DNA from: Escherichia coli
Lineage (GTDB): Bacteria; Pseudomonadota; Gammaproteobacteria; Enterobacterales; Enterobacteriaceae
DNA: 64,000 bases
Reading direction: 5' to 3' (one strand)
Assembly (NCBI RefSeq): GCF_044647545.1
Contig: NZ_CP172818.1
Notes under the pieces: model-generated
Told to the model about the DNA's origin: nothing
The model's database searches: none
The model's input: the letters and a program-made list of their open reading frames with translations, nothing else
In this document: piece by piece, positions 1,704 through 64,000 of the stretch
How positions within the stretch are numbered: the stretch's first letter is position 1
How the letters are laid out: the number at the start of each line of letters is the position of its first letter
Translations under genes and position numbers: made by a program

Positions 1704-2687
1704 ATGCAGATAAAACGCTCGATTGAGAAAATCCCGGGGGGGATGATGCTCGTCCCGCTATTCCTTGGCGCACTGTGCCACACCTTCTCGCCGGGGGCGG
1801 GGAAATATTTTGGATCATTCACCAACGGGATGATTACCGGTACGGTGCCCATTCTGGCGGTGTGGTTTTTTTGCATGGGGGCGTCAATAAAATTAAGCGC
1901 GACGGGAACGGTATTGCGTAAATCCGGTACGCTGGTGGTAACAAAAATTGCCGTCGCGTGGGTGGTTGCGGCAATTGCCTCGCGCATTATTCCGGAACAT
2001 GGTGTTGAAGTTGGATTCTTTGCCGGACTTTCAACGCTGGCGCTGGTGGCGGCGATGGATATGACCAACGGCGGACTTTACGCTTCCATCATGCAGCAGT
2101 ACGGCACAAAAGAAGAAGCTGGGGCATTTGTGTTGATGTCATTGGAGTCCGGGCCGCTCATGACGATGATTATTCTGGGCACTGCCGGGATTGCCTCGTT
2201 TGAACCGCATGTTTTCGTCGGCGCAGTATTACCGTTCCTGGTGGGCTTTGCCCTTGGGAACCTTGACCCTGAATTACGAGAATTTTTCAGCAAAGCGGTG
2301 CAGACGCTGATTCCATTCTTTGCCTTCGCGCTGGGCAATACCATTGATTTGACTGTAATTGCCCAGACAGGTTTGCTGGGGATCCTGTTGGGTGTGGCAG
2401 TAATTATCGTGACCGGTATTCCGTTGATTATCGCCGATAAATTTATTGGCGGTGGCGATGGCACTGCCGGAATTGCCGCTTCCAGTTCCGCAGGGGCCGC
2501 GGTAGCGACACCTGTGCTGATTGCAGAAATGGTGCCTGCGTTTAAACCGATGGCTCCGGCAGCAACTTCGCTGGTCGCGACGGCGGTCATTGTGACTTCG
2601 ATTCTGGTGCCAATTCTTACCTCTATCTGGTCACGTAAAGTCAAAGCCAGAGCGGCGAAAATCGAAATTTTAGGTACGGTGAAATAA
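1704..2687 (+). CDS. kdgT: 2-keto-3-deoxygluconate permease
   Basis: ORF 1662..2687; internal start [24 protein letters not shown]... at 1704 gives 327 aa matching KdgT. Confidence 0.93.
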
Positions 2688-2835
2688 ACCTGCTTCCTTA
2701 ATCCCCACAGCCGGATGAACTAACGTTCGTCCGGTTTGCTATTGAGCTCCTGCCTGGATACATACCGCGAAAACAGCACGCCTGACATAAAATAAATATG
2801 GTCTAATGGGGAAATTTCTCGTGGAGAGGGAACAG

Positions 2836-3510
2836 ATGCGATATCCGGTTGATGTATACACAGGCAAGATTCAGGCTTATCCCGAAGGCAAACCCAGCGC
2901 AATTGCCAAAATCCAGGTTGATGGTGAGTTGATGCTGACGGAGCTGGGGCTGGAAGGTGACGAGCAGGCGGAGAAAATGGTTCACGGCGGGCCAGACAGA
3001 GCGCTGTGTCATTATCCTCGTGAGCACTATCTCTACTGGGCGCGGGAATTTCCGGAACAGGCGGAGTTGTTTGTTGCGCCTGCGTTTGGTGAAAATCTCT
3101 CAACCGACGGTCTGACGGAAAGTAATGTTTATATGGGCGATATTTTCCGCTGGGGAGAGGCATTAATTCAGGTCAGCCAGCCGCGCTCGCCTTGCTATAA
3201 ACTCAATTACCATTTTGATATCAGCGACATAGCGCAGTTGATGCAAAACACGGGTAAAGTGGGGTGGTTGTATAGCGTAATTGCACCAGGGTTGGTATCT
3301 GCTGATGCGCCACTGGAGTTGGTTTCCCGTGTCAGTGATGTGACCGTGCAGGAGGCTGCCGCCATCGCATGGCATATGCCGTTTGATGACGATCAGTATC
3401 ACCGTTTACTCTCCGCCGCCGGGTTATCGAAAAGCTGGACGCGGACGATGCAAAAGCGCCGACTGAGCGGCAAGATCGAAGATTTTTCCCGCCGGTTGTG
3501 GGGAAAATAA
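2836..3510 (+). CDS. yiiM: MOSC-domain protein YiiM (6-N-hydroxylaminopurine resistance)
   Basis: ORF 2806..3510; start at ATG 2836 (MRYPVDVYTGKIQAYPEGK...) gives 224 aa. Confidence 0.92.
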   Translation: MRYPVDVYTGKIQAYPEGKPSAIAKIQVDGELMLTELGLEGDEQAEKMVHGGPDRALCHYPREHYLYWAREFPEQAELFVAPAFGENLSTDGLTESNVYMGDIFRWGEALIQVSQPRSPCYKLNYHFDISDIAQLMQNTGKVGWLYSVIAPGLVSADAPLELVSRVSDVTVQEAAAIAWHMPFDDDQYHRLLSAAGLSKSWTRTMQKRRLSGKIEDFSRRLWGK

Positions 3511-3520
3511 CCCCCGGAGT

Positions 3521-3610
3521 GTAGGCCTGATAAGACGCTATGAGCGTCGCATCAGGCATCCTGCTCAAATGCCGGATGCGGCGTAAACGCCTTATCCTGC
3601 CTACAATGCG
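3521..3610. repeat. REP/BIME palindromic units in yiiM-cpxA spacer
   Basis: gcctgataagacgc...gcgtcgcatcaggc and gccggatgcggcgtaaacgccttatcc, typical REP sequences. Confidence 0.8.
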
Positions 3611-3614
3611 GAGT

Positions 3615-4988
3615 TTAACTCCGCTTATACAGCGGCAACCAAATCACCAGCCGTAAACCGCCCAGCGGGCTGTCTTCTGCTTTAACCCAGCCGCGATGCT
3701 GCTGAATGGCGGTTTCAACAATCGCCAGCCCCAAACCTGTACCGCCAGATTCACGATCGCGTGCTTCATCGGTACGATAGAACGGACGGAAAATCTGTTC
3801 GCGATCTTCCGGGCTAACGCCAGGACCATCGTCGTCCACCGTAATGGTGATACCGTCTTTATCTACCGCAAAGCCCACTTCAATCTTCGTATGGGAATAA
3901 CGCAGAGCATTACGAACAATGTTTTCCAGCGCACTTTCCAGGGCGTTCGGATTGCCGTACAGCGGCCACGGCCCAGGCGGGAAGTTAACTGTCAACGACT
4001 TGCCCATTTGCTCGGCTTCGAACGCCGCGTTATCCAGCACTTCACTCCACAACTGATTGGCTTTGATGGTCTCGCTAACCAGCGCGTTTTTTTGCTGATT
4101 ACGTGACATCACCAACAGGTCGTTAATCATGCTGTCCAGACGTTGCGCTTCGGTTTCAATACGCTCCAGTTCCTTGCTTTCACCGCTACGACGGCGCAGT
4201 AACGCCGTACCCAGTTGTAGACGCGTCAGCGGGGTGCGCAGCTCGTGAGAGATATCAGAAAGCAGACGCTGCTGAGAGGTCATCATGCGCTCCAGCGCGG
4301 TGACCATCTGGTTAAAACTGGCACCAGCGGCAAGGAATTCCTGTGGCCCCGCTTCAAGTTCCGGGTGCTGGCGTAAGTTTCCCTGGGCAACTTCATCGGC
4401 AGCGTTTTTCAGCTTACGCGCCGGTTTTGCCAGACTCCAGGCCAACCACAACAGAAGCGGCGTACTGACCAACATGGTGACAATCAGCAGTAATAGCGGG
4501 CGGTCAAACAGTAAGTTAATGAAATCGGATTGAGAACTGCTGGCCGGACGAATCAGATAAAGTTGGTAATTATCTTCGCCATCACGCACGGAGAACGGAC
4601 CGACCAGTTCCACGCGGCCATACTTTTTCTTCTGCGGATGATCGGCGTTATCGGCCTGACCAATAAAGTTACGAATGATCTGCATTTCGCTGCGTTCAGC
4701 GCCGATCACGCGGCCTTCGGTGGTCACCAATAACAAACGCTGTCCTGGCGGTGCCCACTTATCAATCGCCCGGAACAGACGCCGCCACCACATTAAATCA
4801 TTGGGCGGATCGTTCGCCAGCTCCGCTTCGACATGCTGCTCAATCATCAGACCCTGACGCTGTTCGCTATCCAGAAGCTCGGTCATCTGGCGTGAATCGA
4901 GCTTGGGTAACATCAAAACCAACATCAACACCAGCGCCAGCGTCAGCCAGAAGATGGCGAAGATGCGCGCGGTTAAGCTGCCTATCAT
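3615..4988 (-). CDS. cpxA: envelope-stress sensor histidine kinase CpxA
   Basis: 457-aa ORF MIGSLTARIFAIFWLTLALVLML... with HAMP/HisKA/HATPase sequence features. Confidence 0.97.
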   Translation of the reverse strand: MIGSLTARIFAIFWLTLALVLMLVLMLPKLDSRQMTELLDSEQRQGLMIEQHVEAELANDPPNDLMWWRRLFRAIDKWAPPGQRLLLVTTEGRVIGAERSEMQIIRNFIGQADNADHPQKKKYGRVELVGPFSVRDGEDNYQLYLIRPASSSQSDFINLLFDRPLLLLIVTMLVSTPLLLWLAWSLAKPARKLKNAADEVAQGNLRQHPELEAGPQEFLAAGASFNQMVTALERMMTSQQRLLSDISHELRTPLTRLQLGTALLRRRSGESKELERIETEAQRLDSMINDLLVMSRNQQKNALVSETIKANQLWSEVLDNAAFEAEQMGKSLTVNFPPGPWPLYGNPNALESALENIVRNALRYSHTKIEVGFAVDKDGITITVDDDGPGVSPEDREQIFRPFYRTDEARDRESGGTGLGLAIVETAIQQHRGWVKAEDSPLGGLRLVIWLPLYKRS

Positions 4989-5683
4989 GAAGCAGAAACC
5001 ATCAGATAGCCGCGACCACGCAAGGTTTTAAACCACGGGTGACCATCTTTACGATCCGGCAGTTTACGACGCAGGTTGGAAATGTGCATATCAATAGCGC
5101 GGTCGAAAGGCGTCAGGCGTTTGCCCAGCACTTCCTGGCTTAAATGCTCACGGGAAACCACCTGACCCAGATGCTGTGCCAGCAAATAGAGCAGGGTAAA
5201 CTCAGTGCCGGTTAACTCCAGCGTTTGCCCGTCGAAGCTGGCTTCCTGACGGCCTGGATTCAGCACTAAGGCATCAACTTCCAGTGTCGGTGAACCGTTG
5301 TCGTTGTTTTGCTGTTGCTCGCTCCAGTGCGAACGGCGCAGGATCGCGCGAATACGTGCCACCAGCTCACGATCATTAAACGGTTTCGGGAGATAGTCAT
5401 CTGCGCCCAGCTCAAGGCCGAGAACGCGATCAAGTTCACTGCCGCGCGCCGTCAACATAATGACAGGCGTCTGGTGTGTCTGGCGAAGTGCTTTTAATGT
5501 GTCGATACCATTTTTCTTCGGCATCATTACATCAAGCAAAAGTAAATCAATGCTGTCGTCCAGAAGATCAAGCGCCTGTTCCCCATCGTGGGCAACAATC
5601 ACGTTGAAGCCTTCCATCTCGAGCAGCTCCTTTAATAGGGAAGTCAGCTCTCGGTCATCATCAACTAACAGGATTTTATTCAT
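4985..5683 (-). CDS. cpxR: envelope-stress response regulator CpxR (OmpR family)
   Basis: 232-aa ORF MNKILLVDDDRELTSLLKELLEMEGFNV...; 4-bp overlap with cpxA start. Confidence 0.97.
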   Translation of the reverse strand: MNKILLVDDDRELTSLLKELLEMEGFNVIVAHDGEQALDLLDDSIDLLLLDVMMPKKNGIDTLKALRQTHQTPVIMLTARGSELDRVLGLELGADDYLPKPFNDRELVARIRAILRRSHWSEQQQNNDNGSPTLEVDALVLNPGRQEASFDGQTLELTGTEFTLLYLLAQHLGQVVSREHLSQEVLGKRLTPFDRAIDMHISNLRRKLPDRKDGHPWFKTLRGRGYLMVSAS

Positions 5684-27967: not shown

Positions 27968-28285
27968 TTAGTATTCCCACGTCTCCGGGTTAATCCCCAT
28001 CTCACGCATGATCTCTTTTGCCGCTTCCGGGATTTCGTCGCTGCGCTCTTTACGCAGGTCGGCATCATCCGGCAGAGGTTGCCCGGTAAAGGCATGCAGA
28101 AACGCTTCGCACAGCAGCTCGCTGTTGGTCGCGTGACGCAGGTTGTTCACCTGACGACGCGTGCGTTCATCGGTGAGGATTTTTAACACCTTAAGAGGAA
28201 TGGAAACCGTAATCTTTTTGACTTGTTCACTCTTCTTGCCGTGCTCAGCGTATGGGCTGATATATTCGCCGCTCCATTCAGCCAT
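27968..28285 (-). CDS. metJ: methionine repressor MetJ
   Basis: ORF 27968..28423; start at ATG 28285 ([35 protein letters not shown]...) gives 105 aa. Confidence 0.96.
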
Positions 28286-28473
28286 GAGATACTTAATCCT
28301 CTTCGTCAATAAATTGAGACCAGACCACACAGTTAATGTGGGTACTGACCGTAAACCCGCATAGTTTACCGTACAGGCGTTACCGTGACATCGTGTAATG
28401 CACCTGTCGGCGTGATAATGCATATAATTTTAACGGCTATTTGAGATTTGCTCAATCTATACGCAAAGAAGTT

Positions 28474-28506
28474 TAGATGTCCAGATGTATTGACGTCCAT
28501 TAACAC
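28474..28506. promoter_or_regulatory. tandem MetJ boxes in metJ/metB divergent control region
   Basis: agatgtcc-agatgtat-tgacgtcc-attaacac, tandem 8-bp repeats resembling the met box AGACGTCT. Confidence 0.7.
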
Positions 28507-28561
28507 AATGTTTACTCTGGTGCCTGACATTTCACCGACCAAGCCCAGGGAACTTCATCAC

Positions 28562-29722
28562 ATGACGCGTAAACAGGCCACCATCGCAGTGCGTAGCGGG
28601 TTAAATGACGACGAACAGTATGGTTGCGTTGTCCCTCCCATCCATCTTTCCAGCACCTATAACTTTACCGGATTTAATGAACCGCGCGCGCATGATTACT
28701 CGCGTCGTGGCAACCCAACGCGCGATGTGGTTCAGCGTGCGCTGGCAGAACTGGAAGGCGGTGCCGGTGCCGTACTTACTAATACCGGCATGTCCGCGAT
28801 TCACCTGGTCACTACCGTCTTTTTGAAACCTGGCGATCTGCTGGTTGCGCCACACGACTGCTACGGAGGTAGCTATCGCCTGTTCGACAGCCTGGCGAAA
28901 CGCGGTTGCTATCGCGTGTTGTTTGTTGATCAAGGCGATGAACAAGCATTACGGGCAGCGCTGGCAGAAAAACCCAAACTGGTACTGGTAGAAAGCCCAA
29001 GTAATCCATTGTTACGCGTCGTGGATATTGCGAAAATCTGCCATCTGGCAAGGGAAGTCGGGGCGGTGAGCGTGGTGGATAACACCTTCTTAAGCCCGGC
29101 ATTACAAAATCCGCTGGCATTAGGTGCCGATCTGGTGTTGCATTCATGCACGAAATATCTGAACGGTCACTCAGACGTGGTGGCCGGCGTGGTGATTGCT
29201 AAAGATCCGGACGTTGTCACTGAACTTGCCTGGTGGGCAAACAATATTGGCGTGACGGGCGGCGCGTTTGACAGCTATCTGCTGCTACGTGGTTTGCGAA
29301 CGCTGGTGCCGCGTATGGAGCTGGCCCAGCGCAACGCGCAGGCGATTGTGAAATATCTACAAACCCAGCCGTTGGTGAAAAAACTGTATCACCCGTCGCT
29401 GCCGGAAAATCAGGGGCATGAAATTGCCGCGCGCCAGCAAAAAGGCTTTGGCGCAATGTTGAGTTTTGAACTGGATGGCGATGAGCAGACGCTGCGTCGT
29501 TTCCTGGGTGGGCTGTCGTTGTTTACGCTGGCGGAATCATTAGGGGGGGTGGAAAGTTTAATCTCTCACGCCGCAACCATGACACATGCAGGCATGGCAC
29601 CAGAAGCGCGTGCTGCCGCCGGGATCTCCGAGACGCTGCTGCGTATCTCCACCGGTATTGAAGATGGCGAAGATTTAATTGCCGACCTGGAAAATGGCTT
29701 CCGGGCTGCAAACAAGGGGTAA
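28562..29722 (+). CDS. metB: cystathionine gamma-synthase
   Basis: ORF 28448..29722; start at ATG 28562 (MTRKQATIAVRSGLNDDEQYGCVVPPIHLSSTYNF...) gives 386 aa. Confidence 0.97.
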   Translation: MTRKQATIAVRSGLNDDEQYGCVVPPIHLSSTYNFTGFNEPRAHDYSRRGNPTRDVVQRALAELEGGAGAVLTNTGMSAIHLVTTVFLKPGDLLVAPHDCYGGSYRLFDSLAKRGCYRVLFVDQGDEQALRAALAEKPKLVLVESPSNPLLRVVDIAKICHLAREVGAVSVVDNTFLSPALQNPLALGADLVLHSCTKYLNGHSDVVAGVVIAKDPDVVTELAWWANNIGVTGGAFDSYLLLRGLRTLVPRMELAQRNAQAIVKYLQTQPLVKKLYHPSLPENQGHEIAARQQKGFGAMLSFELDGDEQTLRRFLGGLSLFTLAESLGGVESLISHAATMTHAGMAPEARAAAGISETLLRISTGIEDGEDLIADLENGFRAANKG

Positions 29723-29724
29723 AA

Positions 29725-32157
29725 ATGAGTGTGATTGCGCAGGCAGGGGCGAAAGGTCGTCAACTGCATAAATTTGGTGGCAGTAGTCTGGCTGATGTGA
29801 AGTGTTATTTGCGTGTCGCGGGCATTATGGCGGAGTACTCTCAGCCTGACGATATGATGGTGGTTTCCGCCGCCGGTAGCACCACTAACCAGTTGATTAA
29901 CTGGTTGAAACTAAGCCAGACCGATCGTCTCTCTGCGCATCAGGTTCAACAAACGCTGCGTCGTTATCAGTGCGATCTGATTAGCGGCCTGCTACCCGCT
30001 GAAGAAGCCGATAGCCTCATTAGCGCTTTTGTCAGCGATCTGGAACGCCTGGCGGCGCTGCTCGACAGCGGTATTAACGATGCGGTGTATGCGGAAGTGG
30101 TGGGCCACGGTGAAGTGTGGTCGGCGCGCCTGATGTCTGCGGTACTTAATCAACAAGGGCTGCCAGCGGCCTGGCTTGATGCCCGCGAGTTTTTACGCGC
30201 TGAACGCGCCGCGCAGCCGCAGGTTGATGAAGGGCTTTCTTACCCGTTGCTGCAACAGCTACTGGTACAACATCCGGGCAAACGTCTGGTGGTGACCGGG
30301 TTTATCAGCCGTAACAACGCCGGTGAAACGGTGCTGCTGGGGCGTAACGGTTCCGACTATTCCGCGACACAAATCGGTGCGCTGGCGGGTGTTTCTCGCG
30401 TAACCATCTGGAGCGACGTCGCCGGGGTATATAGCGCCGACCCGCGTAAAGTGAAAGATGCCTGCCTGCTGCCGTTGCTGCGTCTTGATGAAGCCAGTGA
30501 ACTGGCGCGTCTGGCGGCCCCCGTTCTTCACGCCCGTACTTTACAGCCAGTATCCGGTAGTGAAATCGACCTGCAACTGCGCTGTAGCTACACGCCGGAT
30601 CAAGGTTCCACGCGCATTGAACGCGTGCTGGCTTCCGGTACTGGCGCGCGTATTGTCACCAGCCACGATGATGTCTGTTTGATTGAGTTTCAGGTGCCTG
30701 CCAGTCAGGATTTCAAACTGGCGCATAAAGAGATCGACCAAATCCTGAAACGTGCTCAGGTGCGCCCACTGGCGGTTGGCGTACATAACGATCGCCAGTT
30801 GCTGCAATTTTGCTACACCTCGGAAGTGGCCGATAGTGCGCTGAAAATTCTCGACGAAGCGGGATTACCTGGCGAACTGCGCCTGCGTCAGGGGCTGGCG
30901 CTGGTGGCGATGGTTGGGGCGGGCGTAACCCGTAACCCGCTGCATTGCCACCGCTTCTGGCAGCAACTGAAAGGCCAGCCGGTCGAATTTACCTGGCAGT
31001 CCGATGACGGCATCAGCCTGGTGGCAGTACTGCGCACCGGGCCGACCGAAAGCCTGATTCAGGGTCTGCATCAGTCCGTCTTTCGCGCGGAAAAACGCAT
31101 CGGCCTGGTATTGTTCGGCAAGGGCAATATCGGTTCCCGCTGGCTGGAACTGTTCGCCCGTGAGCAGAGCACGCTTTCGGCGCGTACCGGCTTTGAATTT
31201 GTGCTGGCAGGCGTGGTGGACAGCCGCCGCAGCCTGTTGAGCTATGACGGGCTGGACGCCAGCCGCGCGTTAGCCTTCTTCAACGATGAAGCGGTCGAGC
31301 AGGATGAAGAGTCGCTGTTCCTGTGGATGCGCGCCCATCCGTATGATGATTTAGTGGTGCTGGACGTTACCGCCAGCCAGCAGCTTGCTGATCAGTATCT
31401 CGATTTTGCCAGCCACGGTTTCCACGTCATCAGCGCCAACAAACTGGCGGGAGCCAGCGACAGCAATAAATATCGCCAGATCCACGACGCCTTCGAAAAA
31501 ACCGGGCGTCACTGGCTGTACAATGCCACTGTCGGTGCGGGTTTGCCGATCAACCATACCGTGCGCGATCTGATCGACAGCGGCGATACCATTTTGTCGA
31601 TCAGTGGGATCTTCTCTGGCACGCTCTCCTGGCTGTTCCTGCAATTCGACGGTAGCGTGCCGTTTACCGAGCTGGTGGATCAGGCGTGGCAGCAGGGCTT
31701 AACCGAGCCTGATCCGCGTGATGACCTTTCCGGCAAAGACGTGATGCGCAAGCTGGTGATTCTGGCGCGTGAAGCGGGTTACAACATTGAACCGGACCAG
31801 GTGCGTGTTGAATCACTGGTGCCAACCCATTGCGAAGGTGGAAGCATCGACCATTTCTTTGAAAATGGCGATGAACTTAATGAGCAGATGGTACAACGGT
31901 TGGAAGCGGCCCGTGAAATGGGGCTGGTGTTGCGCTACGTGGCGCGTTTCGATGCCAACGGCAAAGCGCGAGTAGGCGTGGAAGCGGTGCGAGAAGACCA
32001 TCCGCTGGCATCACTACTACCGTGCGATAACGTCTTTGCCATCGAAAGCCGCTGGTATCGCGACAACCCGCTGGTGATCCGCGGGCCAGGTGCAGGGCGC
32101 GATGTCACCGCCGGGGCGATTCAGTCGGATATTAACCGTCTGGCGCAGTTGTTGTAA
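29725..32157 (+). CDS. metL: bifunctional aspartokinase II / homoserine dehydrogenase II
   Basis: 810-aa ORF MSVIAQAGAKGRQLHKFGGSSLADVKCYLRVAGIMAEY...; 2-bp spacer after metB. Confidence 0.97.
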   Translation: MSVIAQAGAKGRQLHKFGGSSLADVKCYLRVAGIMAEYSQPDDMMVVSAAGSTTNQLINWLKLSQTDRLSAHQVQQTLRRYQCDLISGLLPAEEADSLISAFVSDLERLAALLDSGINDAVYAEVVGHGEVWSARLMSAVLNQQGLPAAWLDAREFLRAERAAQPQVDEGLSYPLLQQLLVQHPGKRLVVTGFISRNNAGETVLLGRNGSDYSATQIGALAGVSRVTIWSDVAGVYSADPRKVKDACLLPLLRLDEASELARLAAPVLHARTLQPVSGSEIDLQLRCSYTPDQGSTRIERVLASGTGARIVTSHDDVCLIEFQVPASQDFKLAHKEIDQILKRAQVRPLAVGVHNDRQLLQFCYTSEVADSALKILDEAGLPGELRLRQGLALVAMVGAGVTRNPLHCHRFWQQLKGQPVEFTWQSDDGISLVAVLRTGPTESLIQGLHQSVFRAEKRIGLVLFGKGNIGSRWLELFAREQSTLSARTGFEFVLAGVVDSRRSLLSYDGLDASRALAFFNDEAVEQDEESLFLWMRAHPYDDLVVLDVTASQQLADQYLDFASHGFHVISANKLAGASDSNKYRQIHDAFEKTGRHWLYNATVGAGLPINHTVRDLIDSGDTILSISGIFSGTLSWLFLQFDGSVPFTELVDQAWQQGLTEPDPRDDLSGKDVMRKLVILAREAGYNIEPDQVRVESLVPTHCEGGSIDHFFENGDELNEQMVQRLEAAREMGLVLRYVARFDANGKARVGVEAVREDHPLASLLPCDNVFAIESRWYRDNPLVIRGPGAGRDVTAGAIQSDINRLAQLL

Positions 32158-32178
32158 TTTCAGTACTCTAAAATGCCC

Positions 32179-32227
<49 letters not shown>

Positions 32228-32245
32228 GCATGTATTTGAACGGCG

Positions 32246-32274
32246 TTTAAAATGGTTTTAAATGAAACTATAAT
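32246..32274 (+). promoter_or_regulatory. promoter-like element TTTAAA-N17-TATAAT facing the T-depleted tract
   Basis: Perfect -10 hexamer TATAAT at 32269..32274 with TTTAAA 17 bp upstream; no evidence of use. Confidence 0.3.
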
Positions 32275-32377
32275 GCGGTAACGATAGGTATTGAAACGCG
32301 TGATGAAATTAAATGCTACAACGTTATACGACGAACTCAAAGGCAAGGTGATTTGACTTCCTGATCACGAAGTGTTC

Positions 32378-32925
32378 CGGCCCGGCAGCCAAAAGGGGGG
32401 AAAAAGCGGCGCGGAAAAAAAAAAAGCGGGAGGGGAAAGGGGGGATAACCGGGGAGCAAAGGCGGCGAAAGCGAAAAACAAAACGCAAACCCACAAACGG
32501 AGGGGGGCGAAAGGAGAACAAAAAGAAAAGGCGAAAGAAAAAAACGCAAAACCAACGCGACGAGGAAGGCCCAACCGGCAAAAAAAAAAGCAACGACGGA
32601 AAAAAAAGTGAGAAGTGGCAACAAACGGCGCGCAACGCGAAAAAACGTCAGGAACGCCCCAGGAAGGGGTGAGCGGGGCGGGGGGGAAAAACCACCACGC
32701 AACAGCGCGGGAGCCGGGGGGGAGAGGCGCCACACAAACGAAGAAGAAGGGAAAAAAAAAAGGAGGGGGGAGAAAGGAAAAGGGAAAAAAGAACGACACA
32801 ACGGGGGCGGGGAAACAAGAACCAAAGAGCGCCAAAACAGGAAGGACACAAGGAAAGCGCGTAAACAAGGGCGGATACAAACAAACGGAAACCACAGAGA
32901 ACAGACAAGGAGGAAAAAAAAACCA
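32378..32925 (+). repeat. T-depleted low-complexity tract (A/G/C only, about half A)
   Basis: Only 7 T in about 548 nt by direct count; many G3-G7 and A5-A10 runs; all six frames open because stop codons cannot occur. Confidence 0.9.
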
Positions 32926-33229
32926 ATAAAGTACGTGTTGAGTTGATTTTCATTTGTTTGTTACCCAGTTGATTTTGCATATCCAGTATTCGGCCTACGC
33001 GAGGGCGCAGGCCGAATCAGATGTCTTACAACAACAATCCGGTGCGACACGTTGTTTTTCGAAGAAGCCCAGGGTCCGTGTTCAGAATAACAGCAAAAAG
33101 GGGGAGGGGATGCGGCACAAAAAAAATCTTTTATCGCCTCTAATTAAGATGAAGTTTTTTCAACTTCCCTGATTTTTCCTCACCATCATTGGTCATTTTT
33201 CGGTTGACGCCCCTCGGCTTTTCCTTCAT

Positions 33230-38347: not shown

Positions 38348-38490
38348 CTGGTTCGTCCGTGAAAATAAGAGTCACAGATTCGACCTTCCGGGCTAACGAT
38401 TGTTCTGTAGAGAAAATGTCCAGAAGCGGATAAAAAATTCCTGAACAACGTGGGAGTTTCAGACATAACTATAAAAATCTCAACACCCCT

Positions 38491-38565
38491 TTGGGAGAGA
38501 GTCAGGGTGAGGAGGAACAGGCCAGCTCCGGGGCGAATAATCACCCTCACCCCGACCCTCTCCCT
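38491..38565. repeat. imperfect inverted repeat in yijF-gldA spacer
   Basis: gggagagagtcagggtgagg at 38491..38510 pairs with ccctcaccccgaccctctccc at 38545..38565 across a ~34-nt loop; family not identified. Confidence 0.5.
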
Positions 38566-38657
38566 GAAAGGGCGAGGGGGAAAAACATGCCCGCAGTGAC
38601 GAGTGAGCCACTTTGCCTGATCTCAAACTCCCGGACAAGCCGGGAGTTTGGAGTAGG

Positions 38658-39761
38658 TTATTCCCATTCTTGCAGGAAACGCTGGCCATACTGGTCGGCT
38701 ACCAGCAGTGCGGCGTAAACCTGATCTGGCGTTGCACCGCCTGGCATGTTGTGAATGGTTTCACCTTCTGCACATGCCGCTTCTGCCACAATTCGCATTT
38801 TCGCCGGGACATCTTCTTTAATATCCAGTTGAGCGAGCGTTATTGGCAAACCTACCGCATGGCTAAGCGCAGCTACGGTTTCGATTTCCTCCACCGGCGC
38901 GTTTTCCAGAACCAGCTGCGTCAGCGTACCGAATGCCACTTTTTCACCATGATAATAGTGATGCGCGTCCGGGATAGCGGTCAGGCCGTTATGTACCGCG
39001 TGTGCCGCCGCCAGCCCGCCGCTTTCAAAACCAACACCGCTCAAATAGGTGTTCGCTTCAATCACGCGTTCCAGCGCCGGAGTCACTACATGCTGTTCGG
39101 CGGCAAGCATCGCTTTTTCGCCTTCTTCCAGCAGAGTGTTGTAGCACAGTTCTGCCAGTGCCAGCGCCGCCTGGGTGCACTTGCCGCCCGCCATGGTGGT
39201 CGCGCCGCTACGAGAGCAAGCACGCGCTTCAAACCAGGTTGCCAGCGCATCGCCGATACCCGCCGCTAACAGACGTGCAGGTGCGCCAGCGACGATTTTG
39301 GTGTCGACAATGACCATATTCGGGTTATTTGGCAACAGCAGATAGCGGTCAAACTCACCCTCATCGGTGTAGATAACAGACAATGCGCTGCATGGTGCAT
39401 CGGTAGAGGCGATAGTCGGTGCGATCGCTACCGGAACACCCATGAAATGTGCCAGTGCTTTGGCAGTATCGAGGGTTTTTCCGCCACCGATACCGAGAAT
39501 TGCGCCACACTGCGCAGTCTCCGCGATGCCACGCAGACGGTCGATCTCATTTTGCGAACATTCACCGCCAAACGGCGCAATTTCTACTACCAGTCCAGCA
39601 TCTTTAAAACTTTTCTCGACAGTGGATTGAGCAAAACCTAAAACAAATTTGTCACCCACCACTAACCAGCGTTCTGCCAGCGGCTTCAGGTATTCGCCCA
39701 GACGATTAATCACATCAGCGCCCTGGATGTATTTACCCGGTGATTGAATAATGCGGTCCAT
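38658..39761 (-). CDS. gldA: glycerol dehydrogenase
   Basis: ORF 38658..39800; start at ATG 39761 ([32 protein letters not shown]...) gives 367 aa. Confidence 0.96.
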
Positions 39762-49043: not shown

Positions 49044-49190
49044 GTTATTCCCTTAGCTATGTAGACGGGAAAACAGTAACTGGCATTATGAAAAAAGGCC
49101 ACCTGAAAAGTGTGGCCTGAGGGGAGTGCGATGTAAACATTGCGGCAGATCGCATCCGGCAAATAGCGCCAGACGCGATACAAAGGTCAT

Positions 49191-54008: not shown

Positions 54009-54047
54009 AGGTCGGATAAGATGCGCAAGCATCGCATCCGATGGCCT
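54009..54047. repeat. REP unit between ppc and argE
   Basis: ggtcggataagatgcgcaagcatcgcatccgatggcc palindromic REP-like sequence. Confidence 0.75.
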
Positions 54048-57206: not shown

Positions 57207-58580
57207 ATGGCACTTTGGGGCGGGCGTTTTACCCAGGCAGCAGATCAACGGTTCAAACAATTCAACGACTCACTGCGCTTTGATTACCGTCTGGCGGAGC
57301 AGGATATTGTTGGCTCTGTGGCCTGGTCCAAAGCCCTGGTAACGGTCGGCGTGTTAACCGCAGAAGAGCAGGCGCAACTGGAAGAGGCGCTGAACGTGCT
57401 GCTGGAAGATGTTCGCGCCAGGCCACAACAAATCCTTGAAAGCGACGCCGAAGATATCCATAGCTGGGTGGAAAGCAAACTGATCGACAAAGTGGGTCAG
57501 TTAGGCAAAAAGCTGCATACCGGGCGTAGCCGTAATGATCAGGTAGCGACTGACCTGAAACTGTGGTGCAAAGATACCGTTAGCGAGTTGCTGACGGCTA
57601 ACCGGCAGTTACAATCCGCTCTGGTCGAGACCGCGCAGAACAATCAGGACGCGGTAATGCCAGGTTACACCCACCTGCAACGTGCTCAACCGGTGACGTT
57701 CGCGCACTGGTGCCTGGCTTACGTGGAGATGCTGGCGCGTGATGAAAGCCGCTTGCAGGATGCGCTTAAGCGTCTGGATGTCAGTCCGTTAGGCTGTGGC
57801 GCGCTGGCGGGAACGGCTTATGAAATCGACCGTGAACAGTTAGCTGGCTGGCTGGGCTTTGCTTCAGCGACCCGTAACAGTCTCGACAGCGTTTCTGACC
57901 GTGACCACGTGCTGGAACTGCTTTCTGCTGCCGCTATCGGCATGGTGCATCTGTCGCGTTTTGCTGAAGATCTGATTTTCTTTAACACCGGCGAAGCGGG
58001 GTTTGTCGAGCTTTCTGACCGTGTGACTTCCGGTTCATCATTAATGCCGCAGAAGAAAAACCCGGATGCGCTGGAGCTGATTCGCGGTAAATGCGGTCGG
58101 GTGCAGGGGGCGTTAACCGGCATGATGATGACGCTGAAAGGTTTGCCGCTGGCTTACAACAAAGATATGCAGGAAGACAAAGAAGGTCTGTTCGACGCGC
58201 TCGATACCTGGCTGGACTGCCTGCATATGGCGGCGCTGGTGCTGGATGGCATTCAGGTGAAACGTCCGCGTTGCCAGGAAGCGGCGCAGCAGGGTTACGC
58301 CAACGCCACTGAACTGGCGGATTACCTGGTGGCGAAAGGCGTACCGTTCCGCGAGGCGCACCATATTGTTGGTGAAGCGGTGGTGGAAGCCATTCGTCAG
58401 GGCAAACCGCTGGAAGAACTACCGCTCAGTGAGTTGCAGAAATTCAGTCAGGTGATTGGCGAAGATGTCTATCCGATTCTGTCGCTACAATCGTGCCTCG
58501 ACAAGCGTGCGGCAAAAGGCGGCGTCTCACCGCAGCAGGTGGCGCAGGCGATTGCTTTTGCGCAGGCTCGGTTAGAGTAA
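57207..58580 (+). CDS. argH: argininosuccinate lyase
   Basis: 457-aa [47 protein letters not shown]... Confidence 0.97.
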
Positions 58581-60904
58581 GAAATTTTCATCTACTAAAT
58601 TTGATCACCAACCAAAAATAGCACTTCCATATTCATTAATACCGTAAAATCAAGACCGACACGTTTACCAACAACACCAGATATTCAAAACATCAAAAAA
58701 AACATGGCAGAAGTAATTGAAAATAACCAAGGACGAAATCTCGGCACATTTAAAATGATTAATGCAATCGGATATGGGAGAATTAACATGCCATATTAAA
58801 TATTCTCGAAAAGTAGTCCGCTGCTTATCTAAAAGATCATTTCTCTTCAGAAGAAATTTTCAGCGATAACAGGAGCATGGAAGAATAATGGCAACTCCTC
58901 TCTTGAATGTAGAAGGGGACAAGACCCGTCAAGAGGTTAGCTATAACAGACAATAATATAATAATGAAAAATATTAAAGCAAAGTTTGATATTGACCAGA
59001 ACAAAATTTCGGTACCTTACAATAAACACCGTAAGCGGATATTGCCAAATCAGAGAGCGCACAATAAATGAACCGAAGAAGACTACGCAAATCATCAGAA
59101 AAATCAATTTAATCCAAAACTAATTCACCGCGATGCACCCCGTATCCAAAACATTTATCAATTCTGAAGAAAGAAGCATACTCGCGACGACCCCCAACCA
59201 AGAGGTCGGGCACGGAAGACCAGGAGAGGCGTCATAAAAGTATAAAGATAAAACACCAAATATACCAGAATATCAACGTATTAAGTGCGCTTCTAACGAA
59301 CATCTGATGCATGATATCCACAACCCCCGGACCCCGATCGAAGAGGCCCGTGAAGAGAAGAGCAAGACGACACATCCTCTTTAAGATGAAACATGCGAAG
59401 CGCGCTGTAACCCAGAAATGAATCAGTTTTGTTCGGCGAAGACTAAAAGACCGATCGGAACCGGAAATCTAAAACCTTACTCGGAATACAAGCAGTTGAT
59501 CGAAGAAAAGTATATCGATTTTATACCGAAGATGATTAAACCGCAGGCAATAATATCGGGATGAAACAAAATCCCGATCATGACACGCATCATCACCTAA
59601 CTCCCACGCACAGCCCTTCAGATATAACCACTGAGGATTATCCCCGTTCTTGAAGGTAGATCTCACGCTTCCAAACATACGGAATGTTATCGGCGGATTC
59701 ACAATATATGAAGTCATCCCGAATACCTGCCGCGCGAGGAAAACATATCACCAAGGCAAGCAATTAAGCGAAGAGCAGCCTATCAACAAAAATCGCACGA
59801 CGAATATCCATATAACCCGGATTACCTCCACGTACACAATCCAATATGGCATATCTTGGAAAGGACATAACAGTTCGCATAATCATTCACTTCAAACGCA
59901 TCTAATCCATTCATTCCCCTAAATATTTAAAAATGGATGCCGAACTTTCAACTACAGGAGCACAAGGAATAGCAACAAAAAAGGCTTGATCCGACACTAA
60001 TACCTGGCGCATCAATGAAGGTGGGAATCATCAATTCCATCGACCGTTCCTCAGTAATCCTTCAATCAAAAAGATCGTCGAAAGATACGAATGACCCCGA
60101 CTGAATTCCCCTCTCACCACTCGGAGATGGCACTTTTCCGTACACGGAATAACAGAACGCCCAACCAGTATCTGGATAGACAGCTTATCCACAAGAATAC
60201 TTAAAGACCCAAAAATAGAATTCGGGGCATTAATCCGTGCAGCAACAAAAAAACTGCAATCGATTAGCCGTATTATTACAATAACTATCGGTTTATTAAT
60301 TATGGAGGCGACAGTTAATTCCCCCGACCGAACCTAACACAGACTGGTAGGCGAAAAGAAAATTGGAGAGGAAGGATTATCGGAGATTTAACTCAGCGAC
60401 TGTTATCTCTGCGGTTATTCTGTCCCCATCGTTTTTAATAACGCATTTCGCTTTTTTCCTACACCCATTTGTCCCACTAATAGTTTTGGGCGGGGGCCTT
60501 TTATTCTCGGCAGCGATGCAGACATGAACAGAAATGATTAATGCTGATCGCCACGCTATTTAGACGCCGACCGGGCGGAGAAGCGGAGAACCGCCATTTA
60601 TTCCGGTGGGAGGAAGACCGAACAACGAACGGTATGGGCAGAAAGAACCCCCCCCACGGCCCAGGGGGTATTTTACACATCAATCGTGATCTGCCGCGCG
60701 CATGCCCCTGCAACACCTGTATTGAGATAGCTGCCGTTGATCTGGCTCGAAATATTGTCACACCTCGATTCCTTCCCCCATTAACTATTTTCACCCGAAA
60801 CTACGACCCGAAACCGTAAAACTATTCTTTAACCATTACACGTCTTCGTCAATCCCCCCCACCCACTTACTTTATCTCAACCTTTCTGCATTTTCCGGAA
60901 ACCA
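58581..60904. other. anomalous ORF-poor, A-rich intergenic insertion between argH stop and oxyS
   Basis: argH-oxyS spacer is 2385 bp here versus under 0.1 kb as I recall for K-12; no ORF of 60 aa or more in 58581..59468 or 59923..60500; plus strand about 40% A; right boundary approximate. Confidence 0.6.
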
Positions 60905-60965
60905 GGGGATTGCAGATTAACAAAATGGCTTCCATCGCCGGGATTCAAAACTTTGGCAAAAAAAA

Positions 60966-61074
60966 GCGGATCCTGGAGATCCGCAAAAGTTCACGTTGGC
61001 TTTAGTTATTCGAGTTGAGAAACTCTCGAAACGGGCAGTGACTTCAAGGGTTAAAAGAGGTGCCGCTCCGTTTC
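60966..61074 (-). ncRNA. oxyS: OxyS oxidative-stress small RNA
   Basis: Reverse complement reads GAAACGGAGCGGCACCTCTTTTAACCCTTGAAGTCACTGCCCGTTTCGAGAGTTTCTCAACTCGAATAACTAAAGCCAACGTGAACTTTTGCGGATCTCCAGGATCCGC with terminator hairpin and U-run, matching OxyS as recalled. Confidence 0.9.
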
Positions 61075-61169
61075 TGTGAGCAATTATCAGTCAGAATGCT
61101 TGATAGGGATAATCGTTCATTGCTATTCTACCTATCGCCATGAACTATCGTGGCGATGGAGGATGGATA
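61075..61169. promoter_or_regulatory. oxyR/oxyS divergent promoter region containing the OxyR binding site
   Basis: Position between divergent oxyS and oxyR; contains gatagggataatcgttcattgctattctacctatcgccatgaactatcgtggcgatgg with ATAG/CTAT-type OxyR contacts; exact footprint not resolved. Confidence 0.6.
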
Positions 61170-62087
61170 ATGAATATTCGTGATCTTGAGTACCTGGTGG
61201 CATTGGCTGAACACCGCCATTTTCGGCGTGCGGCAGATTCCTGCCACGTTAGCCAGCCGACGCTTAGCGGGCAAATTCGTAAGCTGGAAGATGAGCTGGG
61301 CGTGATGTTGCTGGAGCGGACCAGCCGTAAAGTGTTATTCACCCAGGCGGGAATGCTGCTGGTGGATCAGGCGCGTACCGTGCTGCGTGAGGTGAAAGTC
61401 CTTAAAGAGATGGCAAGCCAGCAGGGCGAGACGATGTCCGGACCGCTGCATATTGGTTTGATTCCCACGGTTGGACCGTACCTGCTACCGCATATTATCC
61501 CGATGCTGCACCAGACCTTTCCAAAGCTGGAAATGTATCTGCATGAAGCACAGACCCACCAGTTACTGGCGCAACTGGACAGCGGCAAGCTCGATTGCGT
61601 GATCCTCGCGCTGGTGAAAGAGAGCGAAGCATTCATTGAAGTGCCGTTGTTTGATGAGCCAATGTTGCTGGCTATCTATGAAGATCACCCGTGGGCGAAC
61701 CGCGAATGCGTACCGATGGCCGATCTGGCAGGAGAAAAACTGCTGATGCTGGAAGATGGTCACTGTTTGCGCGATCAGGCAATGGGGTTCTGTTTTGAAG
61801 CCGGGGCGGATGAAGATACACACTTCCGCGCGACCAGCCTGGAGACGCTGCGCAACATGGTGGCGGCAGGTAGCGGGATCACTTTATTGCCAGCGCTGGC
61901 TGTGCCGCCGGAGCGCAAACGCGATGGGGTTGTTTATCTGCCGTGCATTAAGCCGGAACCACGCCGCACTATTGGCCTGGTTTATCGTCCTGGCTCACCA
62001 CTGCGCAGCCGCTATGAGCAGCTGGCAGAGGCCATCCGCGCAAGAATGGATGGCCATTTCGATAAAGTGTTAAAACAGGCGGTTTAA
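61170..62087 (+). CDS. oxyR: LysR-family oxidative-stress regulator OxyR
   Basis: ORF 61140..62087; start at ATG 61170 ([44 protein letters not shown]...) gives 305 aa. Confidence 0.97.
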
Positions 62088-63470
62088 GCCATTTAGCGCA
62101 GCTACCCGATAGGCTTCCGCCATCGTCGGGTAGTTAAAGGTGGTGTTGACGAAGTACTCAATAGTGTTGCCGCCACCTTTCTGTTCCATAATCGCCTGAC
62201 CGATATGAATAATTTCGGCAGCGCGCTCGCCAAAGCAGTGAATACCCAGAATCTCTTTTGTTTCCCGATGGAACAAAATTTTCAGCGTGCCCACGTTCAT
62301 GCCGACGATTTGTGCACGTGCCAGATGTTTAAACTGGGCGCGGCCCACTTCATATGGCACTTTCATCGCGGTTAGCTGCTGTTCGGTTTTGCCCACAGAG
62401 CTGATTTCCGGGATGGTGTAAATGCCGGTAGGGATATCTTCAATCAGATGTGCGTTGGCTTCACCTTTCACCAGCGCTTGCGCGGCAATGCGCCCCTGGT
62501 CATAGGCTGCCGACGCCAGGCTCGGATAACCAATCACGTCGCCCACCGCGTAAACGTGCGGCTGTGCGGTCTGATACATGCTGTTGACCTTCAGCTGTCC
62601 GCGACTGTCAGTTTCCAGCCCAATGTTCTGTAACGCCAGCGAATCGGTATTACCGGTGCGACCGTTGGCATAGAGCAGACAGTCAGCTTTCAGTTTTTTA
62701 CCCGACTTCAGATGCATGATCACACCGTCGTCACAGCCTTCGATCTTCTCGTACTCTTCGTTGTGACGAATCACTACGCCACTGTTCCAGAAGTGATAGG
62801 AGAGAGAATCTGACATCTCTTGATCGAGAAACGCCAACAGCCGATCGCGGGTGTTGATCAGATCCACTTTTACATCCATACCGCGGAAGATCGACGCATA
62901 TTCACAGCCGATCACTCCAGCACCATAGATAAGTACATGGCGCGGTTCGTGGTGCATGCTAAGAATTGAGTCGCTGTCGTAAATGCGTGGATGGGTGAAA
63001 TCAACATCTGTTGGATGATATGGACGAGAGCCGCAGGCAATAACAAATTTTTCAGCGGTTAGTGTTTCAACGCTGCCGTCCGGGCAATCCAGCGCCAACG
63101 TATGCTCGTCAACAAAGCGAGCGTTCCCCTGCAATATTTCACAGTGATTACGTTCGTAAAATCCCTGACGCATGCGCGTTTGTTGGTTAATCACGTTATC
63201 GGCATGGTTAAGGATATCGGCAAAAGAAGAGCGGAGCAGTCGGGAATGGTCGCTGTATAGTGGGTTTTGATTAAATTCTATAATGCGGCTGACGGCGTGA
63301 CGGAGAGCTTTCGACGGGATGGTGCCCCAGTGGGTGCAACCGCCGCCAACATTTTGATAACGCTCGATAACTGCGACGCGCGCACCTTGCTTAACCAGGC
63401 CCATTGCAGCGCCTTCGCCGCCGGGGCCGGAACCTATTACTATGGCATCGTAATCGTAGGAATGTGGCAT
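62070..63470 (-). CDS. sthA: soluble pyridine nucleotide transhydrogenase
   Basis: 466-aa [57 protein letters not shown]...; 18-bp convergent overlap with oxyR. Confidence 0.97.
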
Positions 63471-63803
63471 GGTAGGGCTTACCTGTTCTTATACATAAAA
63501 GCAACAGAATGGTAACATTTTATCGCGGGTAAGCCAATTGATCCCCGTCATTTATCTGGCTATATCGTGAGCGGCCTTTGCTTTGTCTGTTTCTTACTTT
63601 TGACCTGAACGTTTTATTGGATTTTTATCGACGATACTCTCCGTTTAAGCGGCAGGTTTCCGTTGTACGTAAAAGAACCGGCCAAAGAATTGCAGTAAAT
63701 ATGTTTTATTGCGTTACCGTTCATTCACAACACTGGAGCAATCCAGTATGTTCATTCTCTGGTATAGTGCCAGCAGTACTTTTGGCAAGGATTCAGACAT
63801 CGT

Positions 63804-64000
63804 GATGGGCGTAAGAGCGCAACAAAAAGAAAAAACCCGCCGTTCGCTGGTGGAAGCCGCATTTAGCCAATTAAGTGCTGAACGCAGCTTCGCCAGCCTG
63901 AGTTTGCGTGAAGTGGCGCGTGAAGCGGGCATTGCTCCCACCTCTTTTTATCGGCATTTCCGCGACGTAGACGAACTGGGTCTGACCATGGTTGATGAGA
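63804..64000 (+). CDS. fabR: TetR-family fatty-acid biosynthesis regulator FabR, N-terminal part; gene runs off the window end
   Basis: Translation from ATG 63804 reads [65 protein letters not shown]; an in-frame upstream ATG at 63747 ([19 protein letters not shown]) is an alternative start. Confidence 0.88.

Follow-up and report, generated by a model that had tools for sequence, protein, structure and literature searches.

A gene-poor 2.4-kb block between argH and oxyS in an Escherichia coli chromosome record reads as two out-of-register copies of a manD–MFS island

What fills the 2.4 kb between argH and oxyS in Escherichia coli contig NZ_CP172818.1 (assembly GCF_044647545.1)? The window, a stretch of 64,000 nucleotides (nt) of this contig, carries an intact argH and an intact gene for the small RNA (sRNA) OxyS, and 2384 nt separate the argH stop codon from the OxyS 3' end. 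An earlier note, made from the sequence alone, described an A-rich, G-poor insertion with few open reading frames (ORFs) in this enlarged spacer, and offered three candidates: a large non-coding RNA locus, a heavily decayed horizontally acquired remnant, or an assembly or synthetic artefact. The ORF list, base composition and Rfam-placed OxyS confirm that description. Only the four ORFs named in the note (82–97 aa, in two antisense-overlapping pairs) reach 60 aa. Overall, A makes up 35% of the block and G 18%, A rising to 39–45% in the left part, and the reported shift to a C-rich right end is borne out by 34% C and 12% G at 60701–60900. We show that, column by column, the block superposes two out-of-register copies, with gaps, of a natural island carrying manD and a gene for an MFS transporter. 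The scrambled block itself occupies 2378 nt (58581–60958), and corruption ends 6 nt short of the OxyS 3' end.

The argH–oxyS spacer is naturally polymorphic. About one third of complete E. coli genomes hold a manD–MFS island or a remnant of it between argH and oxyS, so an enlarged spacer is not in itself unusual. The premise that anything beyond about 60 bp is anomalous was thus too strong, as intact 2.8-kb islands are common at the site. In the island-less arrangement of strain C4, argH and oxyR are 266 nt apart, and about 65 nt separate the argH stop from the oxyS terminator. The natural island measures 2813 nt and encodes ManD, a D-mannonate dehydratase of 405 aa (WP_000690928.1), and an MFS transporter of 336 aa (WP_022646390.1). 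Intact carriers include IMT16316 (NZ_CP023815.1) and WP5-S18-ESBL-08 (NZ_AP022161.1), whose 2813-nt islands are identical, and many others. Across E. coli the island occurs in intact, manD-truncated, MFS-only and IS1-disrupted forms: FDAARGOS_1285 has a truncated manD pseudogene with the MFS transporter, JS01 a partial MFS gene only, and PT62 an additional IS1 insertion. Island coordinates below follow the L004 numbering, in which the island spans 2306–5118.

The block follows this island along two registers at once. Dot-plot scans of the insert against the island gave two parallel diagonals over the whole insert length, about 276–287 nt apart. Along either register alone the insert is colinear with the island at about 57–62% identity, and the two island registers are mutually unrelated (23–28% identity). 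Under a Viterbi model that lets every base of the block match the island in either register A or register B, 2173 of 2378 bases were explained, with a longest perfect run of 304 nt; each register by itself explains about 57%. When one register was replaced by a reversed or shuffled island, 75% of bases were explained and the longest runs fell to 33–37 nt; with both replaced, the figures were 63% and 23 nt.

A model that allows columns to be skipped fits the left part almost perfectly. At 58643–59605, 962 of 963 bases (99.9%) equal island column c or c+276, with one mismatch and no insertion; 19 columns are skipped, 13 of them G/T pairs. Over the whole block, the column-skip and fixed-lag models together derive at least 2293 of 2378 bases (96.4%) from local sequence by a simple column rule. 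The overlay also accounts for two other properties of the insert. Self-identity at the register lag is 43.3%, compared with 26.7 ± 1.1% at control lags, and tblastn of the block returned ManD and MFS fragments only (23–46% identity, several frames, two registers), the same window DNA matching two separate parts of ManD and, likewise, of the MFS protein. Both the internal echo and the double matches arise because two registers are overlaid.

The overlay has defined ends (Table 1). Both registers begin at the block's first base, at island positions of about 2398 and 2675, and GAAATTT stands at both places; the island's first 92 nt (2306–2397) are absent. Right of the transition to the longer lag, the fixed-lag lower bounds are 219/228, 166/170, 250/270 and 320/354. 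In the single-register tail that follows, the longest common subsequence with island 4609–4882 covers 162 of 164 bases, compared with 125 ± 3.6 for 20 control island pieces. Of its 93 G, 74 are dropped, whereas losses of T, C and A come to 25 of 73, 7 of 63 and 4 of 45; in competition with a gap, 91% of A, 89% of C, 66% of T and 20% of G are thus kept. After 60958 the sequence jumps past the island's last 188 nt (4931–5118) onto the oxyS terminator.

Table 1. Segments of the scrambled block, its ORFs and the intact flanking genes (window coordinates)
Feature	Position	Strand	Evidence
argH coding sequence, intact left flank	57207–58580	+	ORF of 457 aa; scrambled block adjoins its last base
Overlay start	58581–58642	+	57/62 bases fit the column model, lag 275
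Overlay of manD and its upstream region, lag constant at 276 nt	58643–59605	+	962/963; perfect runs 139/139, 124/124, 139/139
Noisier transition, lag 276 to about 286	59606–59732	+	117/127 at lag 276, 12 columns skipped; register A alone 93
Overlay of manD 3' part and MFS gene, lag 282–288	59733–60754	+	Runs 46/46, 27/27, 74/74, 140/140, 97/97
Single-register, thinned copy of MFS gene (island 4609–4882), 110 bases dropped	60755–60918	+	Longest common subsequence
Near-exact MFS gene interior (island 4890–4930)	60919–60958	+	97.6% identity, 41 columns, 1 gap
Block ORF	59469–59717	-	ORF list, at least 60 aa
Block ORF	59650–59922	+	ORF list, at least 60 aa
Block ORF	60501–60794	-	ORF list, at least 60 aa
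Block ORF	60541–60819	+	ORF list, at least 60 aa
OxyS sRNA gene, intact right flank	60965–61074	-	Rfam RF00035, 139.5 bits, E 3e-30, full length 1–110
oxyR coding sequence, intact	61170–62087	+	ORF, ATG at 61170; RefSeq annotation of identical sequence in L001 and L004

Both ends of the retained island recall the short spacer of island-less genomes. The K-12-type argH–oxyS spacer (65 nt, L008 1582–1650), TGGCTTATCGCCGGGCTTTTTTATGGCA, resembles the MFS-gene interior TGGCTTCCATCGCCGGGATTCAAAACTTTGGCA (L004 4890–4930), which corresponds to window 60919–60964. Its first 24 nt are similar to island sequence near L004 2398, and the block's first 24 nt resemble the K-12-type spacer with a local alignment score of 23 (null maximum 19). 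The retained island range, 2398–4930, is bounded by short stretches like both halves of that spacer. The short K-12-type spacer may be what a deletion of the island left behind, or the two may be alike by chance.

Base choice in the overlay is biased and local. Where the registers disagree, A wins over C in 78%, over G in 74% and over T in 86% of columns; C wins over G in 80% and over T in 58%, and G over T in 55%. Of the 24 possible base-priority orders the alphabetical one fits best, but the choice is stochastic. The two registers are used about equally, neighbouring choices are independent (autocorrelation z 0.8), and we found no dependence of base choice on flanking bases, codon phase or region. 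The block is A-rich and G-poor because A is often written twice, once from each register, and G and T lose most contests. Its right end is C-rich and G-poor because G is deleted where one register alone remains.

Several simpler generators were tried and rejected. A deterministic rule that always takes the alphabetically first base explains only about 80% of informative columns, and no hidden third register that might break ties was found inside the island. A single weight per base fails on win rates that are not transitive. An autoregressive or context-dependent generator does not fit the lack of autocorrelation and of context or codon-phase dependence, and a permutation or sorting of the island does not fit a block with more A than its source.

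The scrambled block sits between pristine flanks. Apart from a few patches, the window matches ST648-type E. coli, for example WP5-S18-ESBL-08 and IMT16316, at 100% identity. Positions 1–25000 are 100% identical to WP5-S18-ESBL-08 and other genomes, and direct comparison with WP5-S18-ESBL-08 gave 0 differences at 28083–32158 and 60959–64000. Between 32928 and 58580 only 69 alignment columns differ from that genome, all in four places: 32930–33160, 38460–38625 and two deletions, of 1 nt at 49149 and of 7 nt at 54042. The argH flank is 100% identical to both FDAARGOS_1285 and WP5-S18-ESBL-08 up to 58580. A block diverged by about 40% between 100%-identical flanks is already incompatible with natural divergence.

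The block is absent from independent data. When 58000–61500 was compared by megablast with 5,426 complete E. coli genomes, only the flanks found matches; none of these genomes covered the insert, and none matched it at 85% identity or more. Sensitive blastn of the scrambled insert gave matches in 1,869 of the 5,426, always to the manD–MFS island and at best at about 65% identity, the other genomes having a short spacer or falling under the sensitivity of blastn with such a query. FDAARGOS_1285 illustrates the discrepancy: its flanks are 100% identical to the window, yet it matches the block at about 65%, on two diagonals. An exact scan with a block 40-mer found no match in two large contig collections, the GTDB representative genomes and the JGI metagenomes, and the products of two block ORFs were not on record in an exact look-up.

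Corruption of a like kind recurs elsewhere in the record. Directly after the metL stop, 769 nt (32159–32927) stand between metL and metF in place of the natural 2778-nt island of the closest genomes, which encodes a hypothetical protein and a bifunctional metallophosphatase/5'-nucleotidase. This stretch holds a 43-nt poly-A run (32182–32224) and then about 500 nt of A, G and C with 1–2% T; only about 100 nt (32287–32388) still resemble the metL–metF island, at 85.6%. A two-register decomposition of 32159–32927 against its own natural island failed, so it has been scrambled more heavily than the argH–oxyS block. Upstream of metF, 32930–33160 shows patchy intergenic corruption with many 1-nt deletions, mostly of G or T, and changes toward A; in one example, CTATAGAGAAAT of otherwise identical natural genomes reads CACAAAAAAAAT here. 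The yijF–gldA intergenic region (38465–38621), which contains repeat-like sequence, carries 5- and 9-nt deletions, several single G/C deletions, G>A and T>C, and the best identity of 38380–38700 among the complete E. coli genomes is 91.8%. Taken together, deletions in these last two stretches fall mostly on G and T, and substitutions run toward A and C.

Two smaller lesions complete the set. Compared with otherwise 100%-identical genomes, the yijO–eptC intergenic region lacks one T at 49149 and the ppc–argE intergenic region lacks 7 nt (CATTGTT) at 54042. As a contiguous allele, the latter deletion is absent from all 5,426 genomes. Damage is confined to strain-variable or repeat-like non-coding sites of the window. 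At least four stretches besides the argH–oxyS block are corrupted in a related way, which puts the whole record under suspicion; novel features from its strain-variable or intergenic parts should be distrusted until checked against reads.

These observations make it very probable that the block is an in-silico corruption of an ordinary 2813-nt manD + MFS island and not biological DNA as written. We infer that it is a product of data processing, because no replication, recombination, repair or mutational process selects per base between two registers of a single-copy locus. The artefact candidate, supported by the two-register overlay, is the sole survivor of the three originally proposed. In the organism, the underlying locus is almost certainly an ordinary argH–manD–MFS–oxyS–oxyR. 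The block has no function, and its lack of ORFs, A-richness, G-poverty and C-rich end are by-products of the overlay rule.

The rule behind the block can be read from the sequence. Each position has the base of one of two island copies stacked 276–287 nt out of register, and the winner is independent from column to column: A prevails most, C comes next, and G and T follow. Dropped columns are mostly G/T pairs. Once the leading copy is exhausted, the remaining copy competes with a gap and loses 80% of its G, and the island's two ends (92 and 188 nt) are missing. The independence of columns, the gap as a competitor, the spacer-like anchoring and the restriction of damage to variable or repeat-like non-coding sites suggest that mis-registered sequences went through a column-wise merging or consensus step, possibly with an island-less template. 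Candidate steps include assembly polishing, reference-guided or multi-genome consensus with an island-less template, and a deliberate or generative scramble.

Some points weigh against an overlay made in silico. The producing step is reconstructed from its output. Because win rates are non-transitive (C beats G in 80% of columns, C/T and G/T contests are near even, a gap beats G and T beats a gap), no simple tie-break reproduces them, nor does one fixed weight for each base. A two-register pile-up has no obvious cause at a single-copy island. Bases foreign to the island are almost absent from the overlay, which makes noisy raw reads an unlikely input, and about 4% of positions are unexplained under the fixed-lag models.

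Superimposed or mis-registered templates give artefacts in mixed Sanger traces after a heterozygous indel, in mis-polished assemblies and in the consensus of misaligned multi-genome alignments. Such artefacts share with the block the origin of each base in one of two shifted templates, a base-dependent preference, the joint dropping of columns and independent column calls. The block's 2.3-kb span exceeds any single Sanger read, and its few foreign bases speak against noisy long reads.

Among the alternatives, a man-made sequence fares best, and we still regard it as very unlikely. A designed or synthesised scramble, physically real and cloned into the chromosome, would agree with an overlay that is clean, rule-like and replaces the island exactly from the argH stop to the oxyS terminator. 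However, like corruption scattered over unrelated intergenic sites (the 1-nt and 7-nt deletions, the 43-nt poly-A) has the look of a processing artefact, and the sequence is free of cloning scars, markers and vector DNA.

Natural decay of a manD–MFS pseudogene, by ordinary mutation and small deletions, is less probable again. The ancestry implied by the decayed-remnant candidate of the earlier note stands: the bases derive from an accessory island, each register is colinear with it at the identity given above, and truly decayed variants occupy the site in FDAARGOS_1285, JS01 and PT62. Decay itself does not stand, as it could not yield the two-register pattern with its selective loss of G. Mismatches in a decayed copy should match an unrelated register in some 25–30% of cases, but here essentially all do (962/963), and perfect runs reach 304 nt compared with 23–37 nt in controls. 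Flanks 100% identical to intact-island relatives leave no time for about 40% divergence, substitutions conserve A while sending G and T to every other base, and no other genome holds an intermediate. A pseudogene remnant would show one colinear register, mismatches unrelated to the rest of its parent, and either divergence matching its flanks or intermediates in relatives; the block shows none of these, its best copy reaching about 65% identity.

The block shares with the intact island its chromosomal site, from the argH stop to the oxyS terminator, its 100%-identical flanks and the source of at least 96% of its bases. It differs in measuring 2378 nt and not 2813, in having lost both ends and in overlaying two registers, and with no ORF above 97 aa it lacks the intact 405- and 336-aa frames of a functional island. 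With the degraded forms in FDAARGOS_1285, JS01 and PT62 it has the locus and the lost coding capacity in common. Those forms, unlike the block, are clean deletions or insertions whose remaining sequence is about 97–100% identical in one register.

Hypermutation does not explain the changes either. As in the block, the changes that diversity-generating retroelements (DGRs) and cytidine deaminases make to a template copy are strongly biased. DGR mutations fall at template adenines, and deaminases give only G>A or C>T. In the block, by contrast, A changes least, with 390 of 447 aligned A retained; G is replaced by A, C or T at about equal rates, and T by A, C or G. The substitution matrix rules out both kinds of hypermutation, and neither yields the second register that the block has.

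A physically real block made by some unknown biological process is harder still to credit. Such a process would have to interleave two registers base by base and delete guanines selectively; extreme template switching or repair at the manD–MFS island is one conceivable form.

We give next to no credence to a large structured RNA locus or to any other functional non-coding element of a new kind. The block's length, scarcity of ORFs, strand-asymmetric composition and position beside an sRNA gene would suit such a locus; its composition and ORF-poverty are fully accounted for by the overlay rule. The Rfam scan, at a permissive E ≤ 1, returned OxyS alone, in keeping with the earlier report of no recognisable structured RNA in the block and at odds with its RNA candidate. 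Folding of the tested strands and segments gave minimum free energies no better than dinucleotide shuffles (z +0.46, +0.60), the source is two protein-coding genes, and no homologues that could show covariation were found in E. coli genomes, GTDB representative genomes, metagenomes, plasmids or phages. Large Rfam RNAs (OLE, GOLLD, ROOL, HEARO) are alike only superficially, in their kilobase scale and ORF-poverty; the block differs in having no covariance-model match, excess structure or homologues.

A new mobile element or foreign DNA, equally negligible, would suit a hotspot of integration and variation and a block that begins exactly at the argH stop codon, but the resident island supplies at least 96% of the bases, scans confirmed the reported lack of terminal inverted repeats, target duplication, tandem arrays and tRNA (tmRNA included), no transposase or integrase is among the ORFs, and searches gave no phage match and only 'plasmid' matches that are chromosome-sized records with manD–MFS genes. 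The one repeat signal, a weak 270-nt-spaced echo, is due to the overlay.

Recognizing the overlay averts a false discovery. A gene-free, hit-free 2.4 kb beside a known sRNA would otherwise pass as genomic dark matter. The test for two shifted copies, run with decoy registers, is reusable as an artefact screen. A literature search on ManD returned nothing relevant to the block.

One further difference from close relatives looks genuine. At the rpmE–yiiX junction (27292–27298), the window lacks the 5.5–7.3-kb RHS/IS1 island of its closest ST648-type relatives. This looks like a real structural difference and not corruption: the junction is of the natural RHS-less type, one base different from strain GF131.

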